Of a stretch of 4,537 nt of DNA, positions 1 to 4,537 are shown piece after piece. The DNA lies in the IMG/VR virus record IMGVR_UViG_2778261224_000010; one strand, given 5' to 3'. The stretch comes from a virus (Duplodnaviria; Heunggongvirae; Uroviricota; Caudoviricetes). Below the pieces are notes generated by a model that searched no databases, was not told the DNA's origin, and was given only the letters and a program-made list of their open reading frames with translations. A program made the translations under genes and the position numbers. How positions within the stretch are numbered: position 1 is the first letter of the stretch; each line of letters opens with the position of its first letter.

Positions 1-1719
1 CAAAGCGAGAGCGCGGCAGCCGGTTCTGCGACTTCAGCAGCTGGATCAGCAACTGCTGCGGCTAACAGCCAGAAAGCAGCGAAGACGAGTGAAACTAACG
101 CAAAGTCCAGCCAGACGGCAGCGAAGACCAGCGAAACGAATGCTAAAGCCAGCGAAACTGCGGCGAAAAGCAGTCAGGATGCAGCAGCTGAAAGCGAGAG
201 TGCCGCAGCTGGTTCTGCAAGTGCGGCGGCTGCTTCTGCCACTGCATCAGCAAACAGTCAAAAAGCTGCAAAAACCAGTGAAACCAATGCAAAGACAAGC
301 GAGACTGCAGCGGCGAACTCGGCGCAAGCATCGGCAGCAAGCCAGACAGCAGCTAAAGCAAGTGAGGATGCAGCCAGAGAGTATGCAAGCCAGGCTGCGG
401 AGCCGTATAAACAAGTATTGCAGCCGCTTCCTGATGTGTGGATACCATTTAACGATTCACTGGATATGATTACGGGGTTTTCGCCATCATATAAAAAGAT
501 TGTTATTGGTGATGATGAAATAACGATGCCTGGCGACAAGGTTGTTAAGTTTAAACGCGCATCGAAAGCAACCTATATTAATAAATCTGGTGTGCTGACA
601 GAGGCTGCCATTGACGAGCCACGATTTGAACGTGATGGCCTGCTTATTGAGGGACAAAGAACGAACTTCTTCCAGAACAGTACAGACCCTTCGAAGTGGA
701 ATAAGTCAACTTCACTGGACGTTACAGAAACAGGCACAGATAGTTTCGGTTTTAATTATGGCCGGTTTGTCGTACAGGATTCGATTGTTGGCACAAGTAA
801 AGCGCATACCATTATAGGGCTGTATTCAAGTACCGGAGGGGTTGATACTTCAGGTGACGAAAAGTATGTAACTATATCCTGCCGGGTAAAAAGTGAAGTT
901 GATAATATCGCCGTTCGTATTTTATTTGAACATTATGATGGGGAAGTAAGGACATCAATAGGAACAGCAAGCCTGAACCTTACCACCCGCATAATTAGCA
1001 AGACGGGTCAGACAAGCCGTGTTACAGCAAGGTCTGTTAAGGATGATGCAACTGGCTGGATATTTTTTGAGGCTACATTAAAAGCAGATACAACAGAAAA
1101 TACGGTTGGTGGTTTCGTCCAGTATTCTCCGGATACAGGGCAGATGGTGGCATCAGGGGATTGTCTCGATGTAACCACTCCACAGATTGAGGCTGGTACA
1201 GGCGCATCATCTTTTATTGTTACGGGGGCGGCACCGGTAACGCGGGCAAGCGATATAGTTACAGTCCCAATTAAGAATAATCTTTATAATCTTCCTTTTA
1301 CGGTTCTTTGTGAGGTACATAAGAACTGGTATAAAACGCCAAATGCAGCACCGCGTGTTTTTGATACCGGCGGTCATCAAACCGGAGCGGCTATCATTCT
1401 TGGCTTCTGTTCTTCAGCAGATTACGACGGATTTCCTTGTTGCGATATTGGTGGGTCTAACAGACGGATAAACGAAAATGCATCACTTGAAAAAATGGTT
1501 ATGGGGATGCGTGTAAAGTCTGATCAGTCTACATGCGCAGTAAGTAACGGGCGTATATCCAGCGAAACAAAAACCACATGGTCATATATTCAGAACTCCG
1601 CAATTATCCGTATTGGAGGCCAGACTACAGCCGGTTTACGCCATTTATTTGGTCATATCAGGAATTTCAGAATATGGCACAAGGCATTGACTGATGCTCA
1701 GATGGGGGAGTCAATCTAA
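1..1719 (+). CDS. Side tail fiber protein, C-terminal portion (5' end lies upstream of the window)
   Basis: Frame 1 is open from base 1 to TAA at 1717-1719 and translates as QSESAAAGSATSAAGSATAAANSQKAAKTSETNAKSSQTAAKTSETNAK..., the Ala/Ser/Thr/Lys-rich repeat typical of lambdoid side tail fibers as I recall them. The listed ORF 418..1719 is in the same frame, so its Met is internal. The C-terminal ~430 aa is a globular, beta-rich distal domain ending in a LamG/ConA-like motif (FRIWHKALTDAQM). Confidence 0.88.
   Translation, partial: QSESAAAGSATSAAGSATAAANSQKAAKTSETNAKSSQTAAKTSETNAKASETAAKSSQDAAAESESAAAGSASAAAASATASANSQKAAKTSETNAKTSETAAANSAQASAASQTAAKASEDAAREYASQAAEPYKQVLQPLPDVWIPFNDSLDMITGFSPSYKKIVIGDDEITMPGDKVVKFKRASKATYINKSGVLTEAAIDEPRFERDGLLIEGQRTNFFQNSTDPSKWNKSTSLDVTETGTDSFGFNYGRFVVQDSIVGTSKAHTIIGLYSSTGGVDTSGDEKYVTISCRVKSEVDNIAVRILFEHYDGEVRTSIGTASLNLTTRIISKTGQTSRVTARSVKDDATGWIFFEATLKADTTENTVGGFVQYSPDTGQMVASGDCLDVTTPQIEAGTGASSFIVTGAAPVTRASDIVTVPIKNNLYNLPFTVLCEVHKNWYKTPNAAPRVFDTGGHQTGAAIILGFCSSADYDGFPCCDIGGSNRRINENASLEKMVMGMRVKSDQSTCAVSNGRISSETKTTWSYIQNSAIIRIGGQTTAGLRHLFGHIRNFRIWHKALTDAQMGESI
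4..294. repeat. Two imperfect direct repeats of about 100 bp (4-105 and 193-294, offset 189 bp = 63 codons) inside the tail fiber gene
   Basis: Copy 1 encodes SESAAAGSATSAAGSATAAANSQKAAKTSETNAK and copy 2 SESAAAGSASAAAASATASANSQKAAKTSETNAK. Shorter KTSETNAK units recur at about 82-105, 121-144 and 271-294. DNA identity is roughly 70 percent by eye. Confidence 0.7.
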
Positions 1720-2724: not shown

Positions 2725-3012
2725 ATGGATATAACACCTTTCCTTCATGCACTTTGTGCTGTGGCTGCACAGGTACTGGTTGGTCTTTTTACCGGAAACT
2801 GGGCTTACGGTGCGATAGCTGGTTGTACGTTCTTCATCGCTCGTGAACATACCCAGGCAGAATATCGCTGGATTGAAATGTTCGGGCATGGCAAGCGTAT
2901 GAATATGCCGTGGTGGGGCGGTTTTGATCCACGCGCGTGGGATGTGGCAAGCCTGATGGATTTTGCTGTGCCGGTGGTGCCGTGTCTGCTGATCTGGATG
3001 TTGATCCGTTAA
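2725..3012 (+). CDS. Hypothetical small membrane protein (95 aa, 2-3 predicted transmembrane segments)
   Basis: Strong Shine-Dalgarno AAGGAGGAG (2714-2722) 4 nt before ATG at 2725. Hydrophobic stretches PFLHALCAVAAQVLVGLF, AYGAIAGCTFFIA and ASLMDFAVPVVPCLLIWMLI, with a Trp-rich segment MPWWGGFDPRAW between them. Last gene of the + strand cluster. No recognisable family. Confidence 0.7.
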   Translation: MDITPFLHALCAVAAQVLVGLFTGNWAYGAIAGCTFFIAREHTQAEYRWIEMFGHGKRMNMPWWGGFDPRAWDVASLMDFAVPVVPCLLIWMLIR

Positions 3013-3028
3013 ATATAAAAAGTAAAAA

Positions 3029-3062
3029 GCCGCAGTAACTTGTCATGATAGGATACTGCGGC
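3029..3062 (-). terminator. Rho-independent terminator candidate for the minus-strand int/dinI unit (weaker bidirectional function possible)
   Basis: Perfect 9-bp inverted repeat GCCGCAGTA (3029-3037) / TACTGCGGC (3054-3062) with a 16-nt loop. On the - strand the stem is followed by TTTTTACTTTTTATATTT. On the + strand no good U-tract follows. It lies between the convergent gene ends at 3012 and 3130. Confidence 0.55.
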
Positions 3063-3129
3063 TGGCTGGTTAACTTTCGATAGTGCGAGTATTGAATGAT
3101 TTCCAGCCGTTACTGATTTTACGTGCTAA

Positions 3130-3378
3130 TTAGTGAACAAACCACTCGTCAGCAGACTCCCAGGTATCTTTCAGAGTTTCCTGAACAAAAGTTTTAGCTG
3201 AATCTTTATCGGCGGTGCGCGTAACAGAAAGGCCATCGTTGCTGGTGGCTTTTACGATCACCTCTACATCGTCATAACGTTTACTGATGCGTCGGGTTAA
3301 TTCTTCCTTTAACGCATCCACAGCACCGTTTGGCATTTTAGTCATTTTTTCTTTGGCTATGCAGATCTCAATACGCAT
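3130..3378 (-). CDS. dinI: DinI-family (DNA-damage-inducible protein I-like) protein, 82 aa
   Basis: Translation [35 protein letters not shown]...[33 protein letters not shown] shares the MRIE..IAK..GA(I/V)DAL..EL(S/T)RRI..LSV..ETWESAD(D/E)WFV signature of E. coli DinI as I recall it. Shine-Dalgarno AGAGGGA (complement of about 3383-3389) upstream of ATG at 3376-3378. Two LexA boxes lie immediately upstream. Confidence 0.88.
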
Positions 3379-3391
3379 AAAAGTCCCTCTA

Positions 3392-3411
3392 TACTGTGTT
3401 TGTATACAGTG
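3392..3411 (-). promoter_or_regulatory. LexA (SOS) box 1, promoter-proximal operator of the dinI-like gene
   Basis: TACTGTGTTTGTATACAGTG: CTGT (3394-3397), 8 nt, ACAG (3406-3409), against the consensus TACTGT(AT)4ACAGTA. It sits 14-33 nt upstream of the dinI-like start codon. Confidence 0.8.
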
Positions 3412-3413
3412 TT

Positions 3414-3443
3414 ATTTTTAACTGTATGGATAAACAGTGTCAA
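3414..3443 (-). promoter_or_regulatory. Candidate sigma70 promoter of the dinI-like gene
   Basis: On the - strand, TTGACA (complement of 3438-3443, overlapping the int stop codon at 3440-3442) is followed 17 nt later by TAAAAA(T) (complement of 3414-3420). The -35 is perfect, the -10 imperfect. LexA box 2 occupies the spacer and box 1 the start/leader region. Confidence 0.5.
3420..3439 (-). promoter_or_regulatory. LexA (SOS) box 2, within the promoter spacer
   Basis: AACTGTATGGATAAACAGTG: CTGT (3422-3425), 8 nt, ACAG (3434-3437). It lies 12 nt from box 1 and falls between the candidate -35 and -10 elements. Confidence 0.75.
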
Positions 3444-4537
3444 GAGGTCTTATTTCTGCTCCTTTGGAGCTCTTCAAAACGATTATGTAAAGATTTCGGA
3501 TACAGTTCGGTATATACCTGCCATAGCACGTTTAATGAACGATGCCCTGTAACCTGAGCGACTTCCTCAATACTAAAACCAGCCTCAAATAAGCGACTTG
3601 CCCCTTCTCTACGCAAATCATGGTATCGCAGATCTTTAATACCTAATTTGCTTCTTACCCTCTGAAATCCTGCAGTAACAGAAGTGCTGTTATATGGAAA
3701 AATGAATTCCGATTTTTTGGGCTGTCGTTGGACGATATCCCAGGCTTCCCCAAGCAAGGCTACTTTCATGTGGTTGCCTTCCTTTTTGCGTGGATCTTTC
3801 CTGTCTCTTACGAGTATAGATTTTTGTTCCTGGTCGAGATCTTCCCATCGTAACCGGCATACTTCTCCGATCCGCATACAGGACCACACAGAAAATTTGA
3901 GGATATCAACGAACGGAATTTTTGAGCATTTATGAGTAGATCGTTGTTGAAGGCCTTCAATGAGCATGTCCAGTTCATCAGATGCTGGTCTACGATTACG
4001 ACGGTTTGATTTACCAATCAAACCAAGTTTAAGTAGATATGGGCGAGCGCTTTTCGCCGGGTTTGATGTGTAATTAATTCCGTATACAGGTTTGGCCGCA
4101 TCCAGAACACTGCCAAGATAACTAACATCGTGGCTGACTGTTGCTGGACCTGCACCAGCGTTGTTTCTTAGCCTGCAATGTTCAATTACGTCATTTTCTG
4201 TCAGTTCAGATAGTTTGATCGCGGAGATGTCACTATCCATAAGCAGTTCCAGCACATATCTTTTAGTACGGCCTGCTTTACCTCCGGCATTTGGGTCATT
4301 TAAATATTTGTGTAGTAAGTCACGGACTGTAAGTCCGTCAACTGCATTTGATGATGGAATGCCATATAGATCTAATTCCATCACTTTCTGTGTTCCCCAT
4401 GTTTTGGCATGAGCATGTTTAGGGAATGTTTTGCTTTCCCTGTAAGTGATAACACCTTTTTCTTTGATAATCACATTACAGCGATAGCGTGGTGTGCCAT
4501 CGGATTTTAGTCGTTTCTCTATGTTATAGTACGCCAT
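3440..4537 (-). CDS. int: Phage tyrosine-type integrase (site-specific recombinase)
   Basis: 365-aa ORF from ATG at 4535-4537 (at the window edge, so the true N-terminus could lie further out) to TGA at 3440-3442. The C-terminal catalytic domain carries the tyrosine recombinase residues: Arg in SCMRIGEVCRLRWEDLD, H-x-x-R in LRYHDLRREGASRLF, and His/Tyr in GHRSLNVLWQVY. Confidence 0.9.
   Translation of the reverse strand: MAYYNIEKRLKSDGTPRYRCNVIIKEKGVITYRESKTFPKHAHAKTWGTQKVMELDLYGIPSSNAVDGLTVRDLLHKYLNDPNAGGKAGRTKRYVLELLMDSDISAIKLSELTENDVIEHCRLRNNAGAGPATVSHDVSYLGSVLDAAKPVYGINYTSNPAKSARPYLLKLGLIGKSNRRNRRPASDELDMLIEGLQQRSTHKCSKIPFVDILKFSVWSCMRIGEVCRLRWEDLDQEQKSILVRDRKDPRKKEGNHMKVALLGEAWDIVQRQPKKSEFIFPYNSTSVTAGFQRVRSKLGIKDLRYHDLRREGASRLFEAGFSIEEVAQVTGHRSLNVLWQVYTELYPKSLHNRFEELQRSRNKTS

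Follow-up and report, generated by a model that had tools for sequence, protein, structure and literature searches.

The stretch of DNA analyzed here (the window, 4,537 bp) forms the right end of a lambda-like prophage of E. coli, with 98-100% identity to phage mEp460 and to many chromosomal prophages. In the genome that matches the window at 100%, the prophage is flanked by zur and dusA, and the start of its integrase gene int lies 89 bp from the start of dusA. On the minus strand of the window, int is followed by a gene for a small protein of the DinI family and by a structured 3' untranslated region, and on the plus strand lies the end of the late operon, with a tail fibre gene, a 93-aa open reading frame, a gene for a 234-aa protein with a tail-fibre domain and a gene for a 95-aa membrane protein. 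The features of the minus strand are collected in Table 1. Only about 3 kb separate the left end of the same prophage from the lexA-dinF operon of the host, a nearness that is probably a coincidence of the use of dusA as the integration target.

Table 1. Minus-strand features of the int-dinI region, in window coordinates
Feature	Position	Strand	Basis
int, tyrosine integrase of the dusA-inserting type	4537..3440	minus	ORF, 365 aa; PF00589, E=1e-20
-35 hexamer TTGACA, left boundary of the mobile cassette	3438..3443	minus	Promoter scan; homology start in four phage contexts
Distal LexA box (predicted), core 3422-3437	3420..3439	minus	Pattern match; score 5.6
-10 element TAAAAAT	3414..3420	minus	Promoter scan; invariant in four-context alignment
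Proximal LexA box (predicted), core 3394-3409	3392..3411	minus	Pattern match; score 4.3, best in the window
Shine-Dalgarno sequence GAGGG, 6 nt ahead of ATG	3385..3389	minus	Read from the sequence; kept in variants
DinI-family gene, 82 aa	3378..3130	minus	ORF; PF06183
Two-hairpin 3' UTR element	3018..3124	minus	Fold -30.1 kcal/mol, z=-3.6; covariance-model match 89.9 bits, E=4e-22

The product of the dinI-like gene belongs to the DinI family, as the initial annotation had proposed: it matches the Pfam profile over all of its length (positions 1-63 of 63, 70.8 bits where the cut-off is 24.2, E=1.2e-19) and also phrog_189, 'RecA filament binding protein DinI', with E=4e-31. It is 46% identical over its full length to the K-12 DinI, and its top matches in the PDB are the solved DinI structures 1GHH and 7YWA (E=8e-13). 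In the cryo-EM analysis of RecA-DinI, contacts are made by L13, L21, W71, W77 and F78, which form a hydrophobic pocket, and by E24, E69 and D76, which form an acidic patch (PMC9926225). Five of these eight positions are identical in the window protein (L23, E26, W73, W79 and F80, corresponding to L21, E24, W71, W77 and F78 of K-12), and the other three show conservative changes (M15, D71 and E78 for L13, E69 and D76). Given the profile matches, the identity to K-12 DinI and the preserved contact positions, the protein most likely binds the RecA filament groove, the same groove that is used by LexA, UmuD and lambda CI (PMC9926225). Its affinity for RecA could differ, because Met15 replaces Leu13 and a two-residue insertion lies nearby.

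The gap between int and the dinI-like gene (3379-3439) is 61 bp long, and the two LexA boxes and the TTGACA hexamer that had been reported there were correct in every coordinate. The two CTGT-N8-ACAG palindromes, 12 bp apart, are the sole matches to this pattern in the window; 0.09 matches are expected per window, and two or more occurred in only one of 200 shuffles. Six of the eight central positions are A or T in each box. The promoter scan found TTGACA and AAAAAT at 18-bp spacing, with 10 of 12 positions matching; TAAAAA at 17 bp is an alternative register. The -35 hexamer does overlap the stop codon of int, whose TGA (3442..3440) lies entirely within it. The distal box occupies the spacer between the -35 and -10 elements, overlapping the former by 2 bp, and the proximal box begins 2-3 nt past the -10 and spans the predicted transcription start (approximately 3410-3406). 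Two bound LexA dimers would tile the core promoter between -35 and about +16 so that the -10 alone stayed exposed, a placement that reads as a promoter-occlusion layout. The GenBank record of mEp460 already has a promoter and a 'DinI-like protein' annotated at this locus, and the LexA boxes are not annotated there. The absence of a terminator between int and the dinI-like gene also stood: the scan gave no terminator-like site, and the fold of the stretch has no U-run. Read-through from int into the dinI-like gene is possible, since the gap lacks a terminator.

Both boxes were scored, as had been suggested for a check, with a matrix of the heterology-index type derived from 28 E. coli LexA sites. 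The sites are from the literature, and the dinI site alone was verified against K-12, so the scores are approximate. With this matrix the 20-mers 3392-3411 and 3420-3439 score 4.3 and 5.6, in the range of sulA, dinI and recA (leave-one-out), while the 28 known sites score between 1.5 and 12.1 in the same leave-one-out treatment. The third-best site in the window scores 12.3. Among 200 shuffled windows none contained a site at or below 5.6, the best shuffled site having a score of 6.5.

The control region is conserved among relatives. In 66 copies from viral contigs for which the upstream sequence was available, the -35, the -10, the Shine-Dalgarno sequence and, in both boxes, the CTG/CAG arms are preserved almost without exception, CTGG or TTGATA being seen in a few variants; the central bases of the distal box vary, with TTTATCCATA, TTTATTTATA and TTTATTTGTA among the forms found. 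We also surveyed 80 DinI-family loci across genera, taking one genome per species. At least one strong box is present within 100 nt of the start in 76 of the 80 loci. Two boxes, at about -61 and -34 and spaced by 24-29 bp, occur in 13 of the 19 loci whose proteins are at least 56% identical to the window DinI; these two-box loci include Escherichia, Shigella, Trabulsiella, Mixta, Erwinia and Pantoea. Nearly all loci with identity of 51% or less have one box at about -39, as does the K-12 dinI. The two-operator design is a conserved trait of this prophage-associated DinI clade, because two boxes are found in most of the closer loci across genera, as against a single box in the more distant ones. 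The spacing of 24-29 bp among the relatives does not imply cooperative binding of LexA, and its variability argues against a strict cooperative geometry. In Erwinia tracheiphila and Mixta mediterraneensis, the dinI-like gene with two LexA boxes is preceded by a divergent gene that encodes a P22-antirepressor N-terminal domain. The shared control region might regulate an antirepressor in these relatives; this is not so in the window.

As the LexA reading of this locus rests on sequence, one may ask whether both palindromes are chance or fossil motifs that have no LexA function. This is exceedingly improbable: the count expected per window is far below one, none of the 200 shuffles reached either score, and the boxes have stayed at fixed positions with respect to the promoter, both through sequence divergence and across genera.

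The dinI-like gene and its signals are not confined to this prophage. In a megablast comparison against phages, most matches were restricted to window positions 3056-3443 and stopped at the -35. We aligned four upstream backgrounds: the window prophage with its dusA-type int; phage 2H10, whose int is a different one and lies on the opposite strand; YYZ-2008, located at the btsS att site; and CP-1639, located at ssrA. The four are alike from exactly TTGACA on, and the sequences upstream are unrelated. Downstream of the gene, identity continues through about 75 nt of the 3' UTR and the hairpin and then ends. Since the homology is bounded by the -35 and the terminator hairpin in differing phage backgrounds, the promoter, operators, gene and terminator (approximately 3018-3443, minus strand) move as a single unit. 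Its properties are those of a phage moron, with its own promoter, its own terminator and boundaries that fall at these signals in at least four contexts. The cassette is always located at the junction of the tail fibre genes and att-int, and is transcribed against the late operon. A search with a 321-nt query placed it in 1815 of 5426 complete genomes of E. coli; a single genome has up to seven copies.

The integrase gene is upstream context and is outside the cassette. Its TGA stop codon is supplied by the -35 of the cassette, and the homology to cassettes of other phages begins at this stop, so that the C-terminus of Int ends at a mosaic junction. One could suppose that the operators mainly serve int, either with LexA acting as a roadblock or modulator at the 3' end of the int transcript, or with read-through from int being tied to the SOS response. 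The missing terminator between int and the boxes, the overlap of the -35 with the int stop codon, and the joint occurrence of int and dinI in 717 E. coli records would all fit such a role. However, the unit of promoter, operators and gene is also found without int upstream, with homology starting from the -35, and the distances of the boxes to the dinI promoter and to its ATG are the same in other genera, which is the signature of promoter occlusion. We thus regard a service to int as very unlikely. The adjacency of int and dinI is an incidental recombination junction rather than an operon design, because the same cassette adjoins, from the -35 on, unrelated sequence, other integrases and other att sites.

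Our preferred reading is that positions 3018-3443 (approximately, minus strand) constitute a self-contained, DNA-damage-inducible cargo cassette, or moron, of lambda-like E. coli prophages, in which a LexA-repressed promoter drives a RecA-binding DinI product; we put its probability at roughly 0.8. Repression by LexA and induction upon DNA damage are the best reading of the locus, because high-scoring boxes lie over the promoter, the gene is a true member of the DinI family and no terminator follows int. The candidate sigma-70 promoter is near consensus (TTGACA, a spacing of 17 or 18 bp, TAAAAAT) and has its putative LexA operators in the spacer and over the transcription start. As long as the lysogen is undamaged, LexA dimers of the host at both sites would exclude RNA polymerase and keep the gene off. 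DNA damage would lead to the formation of RecA filaments and to self-cleavage of LexA, whereupon the promoter would fire, the kinetics of induction being set out here as a prediction. The product would be a monocistronic mRNA of about 390 nt, ending at the hairpin and U-run near 3020. As the groove of the filament is common to LexA, UmuD and CI of the lambda type, the 82-aa DinI paralogue bound in it would tune both the stability of the filament and its co-protease activity in the SOS response.

Various aspects of this scheme have counterparts among characterized genes. The dinI homologues of prophages Gifsy-1, -2 and -3 are controlled by LexA boxes and induced 4.6- to 23-fold by damage (PMC3121763, PMC8072944). 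They resemble the window gene in that a prophage DinI paralogue is transcribed from a sigma-70 promoter in response to damage; the Gifsy LexA box and the ATG are about 19 nt apart, and treatment with mitomycin C leads to accumulation of the protein. They differ in having one box and in being the first gene of an operon that runs into an antirepressor gene (gfoA/gftA) and irsA, whereas the window cassette has two boxes, is monocistronic with its own terminator, and is located at the tail-fibre/att end of the prophage. For CFT073, a strain whose SOS expression is reduced shows a fall of the prophage dinI-like gene c0943 together with sulA, umuD and recN (PMC2817434), and the dinI promoter of K. 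pneumoniae binds LexA in ChIP (PMC10907235). Literature searches on the function of DinI paralogues of lambdoid prophages, or on their double LexA box, gave only the Gifsy work and passing mentions.

The chromosomal dinI of K-12 (b1061) belongs to the same fold family, is regulated by LexA and, similarly, follows a same-strand gene (pyrC) at a distance of 73 bp. In contrast to the window gene, it has a single box, ACCTGTATAAATAACCAGTA, overlapping the -10, its short 3' UTR lacks the two-hairpin element, and it is a core gene rather than a mobile one. More than one LexA box over the core promoter is found in recN, lexA and the colicin genes and goes with tight repression. In lexA and recN the centres of the boxes are about 21-22 bp apart, and the colicin promoters have overlapping boxes; in the window the centre-to-centre distance is 28 bp (24-29 bp in relatives), and this wider spacing makes the cooperativity of LexA at the window boxes uncertain.

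LexA control of a prophage dinI was thus already known from Gifsy, and the window cassette is an ordinary and very widespread member of this group, not a new induction switch. If confirmed, the scheme would mean that one to seven additional dinI copies under LexA control, all borne by prophages, are present in a third of the E. coli strains sequenced, and hence that the SOS response proceeds with a higher dose of a protein competing for the groove of the RecA filament. The extra DinI could shift the timing of this response, mutagenesis that depends on UmuD, or, in polylysogens (strains with Shiga toxin phages among them), the cleavage of repressors of the CI type. This would be a modest refinement of known biology, with no new mechanism; the two operators of the clade, as against one in the chromosomal dinI, add a small point on how tightly prophage cargo is silenced.

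One proposal of the initial annotation found no support, namely that the dinI-like gene couples DNA damage to prophage behavior in the manner of the Tum antirepressor: only the DinI half is present, no antirepressor gene lies downstream, and the repressor is of the CI type. The more general form of this idea is that the LexA-controlled unit inactivates the repressor or sets the frequency of induction, as Tum and the Gifsy operons do. It draws on the association of LexA-controlled antirepressor modules with DinI sequences in phage 186, PSP3, Fels-2 and Gifsy (PMC3121763), on the divergent gene with the P22-antirepressor domain beside the two-box dinI in the Erwinia and Mixta relatives, and on the groove shared by DinI and lambda CI, through which the rate of CI cleavage could in principle be altered (PMC9926225). 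Tum of phage 186 and the split tum of PSP3 and Fels-2 are indeed similar to the window gene, being LexA-repressed phage genes with a DinI-like sequence. But Tum has 146 aa and an N-terminal antirepressor half, and the window prophage has neither this half nor a separate antirepressor gene. The 82-aa protein covers only positions 71-149 of the 151-position phrog_189, a family that includes proteins of Tum length, and thus is without the N-terminal half of these longer members. No open reading frame of 30 aa or more is present on the same strand between the stop codon of dinI and the terminator some 65 nt downstream.

Further evidence against a coupling role comes from the repressors. Both mEp460 and the prophage that is 100% identical to the window encode self-cleaving repressors with HTH and peptidase S24 domains, so that an antirepressor is not needed. 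The repressor of the latter prophage has an Ala-Gly site, and this combination of HTH domain, S24 domain and Ala-Gly identifies it as a CI-type repressor, inactivated directly by RecA filaments. Moreover, the cassette is present in many unrelated immunity backgrounds, and non-polar deletions of the Gifsy dinI genes left induction unchanged (PMC3121763). On balance we consider it unlikely that the dinI-like protein acts as a coupler of damage to induction, and retain the reading of a LexA-controlled cargo cassette.

The 100%-identity prophage encodes, about 30 kb away (14825-15151 of its stretch), a 108-aa protein that consists of the LexA DNA-binding domain only. It matches PF01726 with 69 bits, aligns to residues 2-69 of the E. 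coli LexA, and has a nearly identical recognition helix (SVNAAVEHLRAL vs SPNAAEEHLKAL), with neither a cleavage site nor a protease domain. The same gene is present in mEp460 as mEp460_046. A truncated LexA homologue activates the late genes of the Bacillus phage GIL01 (PMC6182141). The prophage protein could bind LexA boxes without being cleavable, and those in the int-dinI gap would be among its candidate sites.

The 3' end of the cassette is formed by an element of about 105 nt with two hairpins. Helix 1 (GGCTGG/CCAGCC) pairs 3108-3103 with 3069-3064 and encloses a 33-nt loop containing CAUUCAAUACUCGCACUAUCGAA; helix 2 (GCCGCAG.../...CTGCGGC) pairs 3062-3054 with 3037-3029. The window copy closes with the U-run UUUUUACUUUUU (3028-3017) and is likely the intrinsic terminator of the dinI-like transcript. 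The exact 21-mer of loop 1 occurs in at least 120 viral contigs. Among the copies of the element with enough flanking sequence, 26 follow this DinI gene, 18 follow another DinI-family gene (80 aa, MsgA-like, MFVELVYDKRNFDGLPGAKD...), 16 of them with LexA boxes, and 43 follow neither. The MsgA-like gene is itself a cargo gene, with one or two LexA boxes, located about 50 nt upstream of the element and beside tail-fibre or invertase genes. The element recurs at the tail-fibre/att junctions of prophages with or without a DinI gene. It is absent from the more distant DinI loci (65% identity or less) and therefore is not a general feature of dinI. In phage lambda (NC_001416), a profile and a covariance model locate it in the b region, between ea31 and ea47 on the leftward strand (approximately 24157-24257); lambda also has a copy of helix 2 alone at approximately 22569-22614. 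In K-12, the Qin prophage carries the element at approximately 1632469-1632572, where nothing is annotated, and Rac has a partial copy, mainly of helix 2 (24719-24803 of its stretch).

In 96 distinct copies of the element, 93% of cells are paired as against 26-44% in slid controls, compensatory changes occur in 16 of 17 pairs, and none of 500 shuffles reaches the observed values; these statistics lean towards structure, because they come from related copies in an alignment fitted to the model. RNAalifold on the MAFFT alignment missed helix 2, because its 3' arm was out of register, and a structure given by hand, the covariance model and pair counting were used instead. The folds of the whole element and of helix 1 favor the plus strand of the window, whereas the count of G-U versus A-C cells (94 vs 51) favors the minus strand, to which the alignment had been fitted. 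Rfam searches with permissive E-values of the whole window and of 2990-3460 gave nothing credible, scans for tRNA and tmRNA found no genes in the window or at the lambda, Qin and Rac loci, and a full-text literature search with the element sequence returned no paper. Some copies are preceded by sequence of tRNA-like appearance, which the tRNA and tmRNA scans did not confirm. Identity with the sib/tI retroregulator of lambda was ruled out: a phage whose int is of the lambda type has the sib/tI hairpin and, behind it, the element as a module of its own. In RefSeq, a 'capsid protein' pseudogene fragment with an internal stop codon lies over the element (window approximately 3053-3133, plus strand), and is probably a misannotation that has spread through databases.

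A precedent for a regulatory output of such a region exists in Klebsiella, where the small RNA DinR is cut from the dinI mRNA and represses ftsZ (PMC10907235). The LexA-controlled dinI mRNA of Klebsiella also has an extended structured 3' region (PMC10907235), but the pairing region of DinR is specific to Klebsiella, and the window element is unrelated to it in sequence and is also found away from dinI genes. By analogy with DinR, the main output of the cassette might be RNA, the LexA-driven transcript serving to deliver the element as a damage-induced small RNA of the 3' UTR. The compensatory changes in both helices and the U-run end of the window copy agree with this, as do the location of the element 3' of two unrelated DinI-family genes, both with LexA boxes, and the maintenance of the loop sequence where the coding sequence is down to 70%. 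However, in about half of the copies neither a DinI gene nor a LexA box lies upstream, and in many the U-run is missing. The strand test is weak (94 G-U against 51 A-C cells), helix 1 folding better on the other strand. In addition, the DinI coding sequence is itself well conserved, and no target is known for the element. An RNA as the main product is therefore, in our opinion, quite improbable compared with the DinI protein of the preferred reading. Going further, one could imagine that the 3' end of the transcript outweighs the protein, the two-hairpin element being a damage-induced regulatory or stabilizing RNA, and that the uncleavable LexA-domain protein re-closes the operators during lytic growth, the two together forming an SOS sub-circuit run by the phage. 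We mention this as a speculative and rather unlikely scheme.

Other observations concern the surroundings of the cassette. The tail-fibre frame at window 1-420 opens with near-repeats rich in Ala, Ser, Glu and Lys, such as ...KTSETNAKASETAAKSSQDAAAESESAAAGSA.... A weak Rfam match to isrG in the same region (19 bits against a gathering score of 100) is spurious. Finally, in the 100%-identity prophage, genes for a subtilase-family AB5 toxin binding subunit and a scabin-related ADP-ribosyltransferase are located at 18066-19240 of its stretch, 3' of the gene for the Q antiterminator, and look like toxin cargo at the place where the Stx genes sit in Shiga toxin phages.
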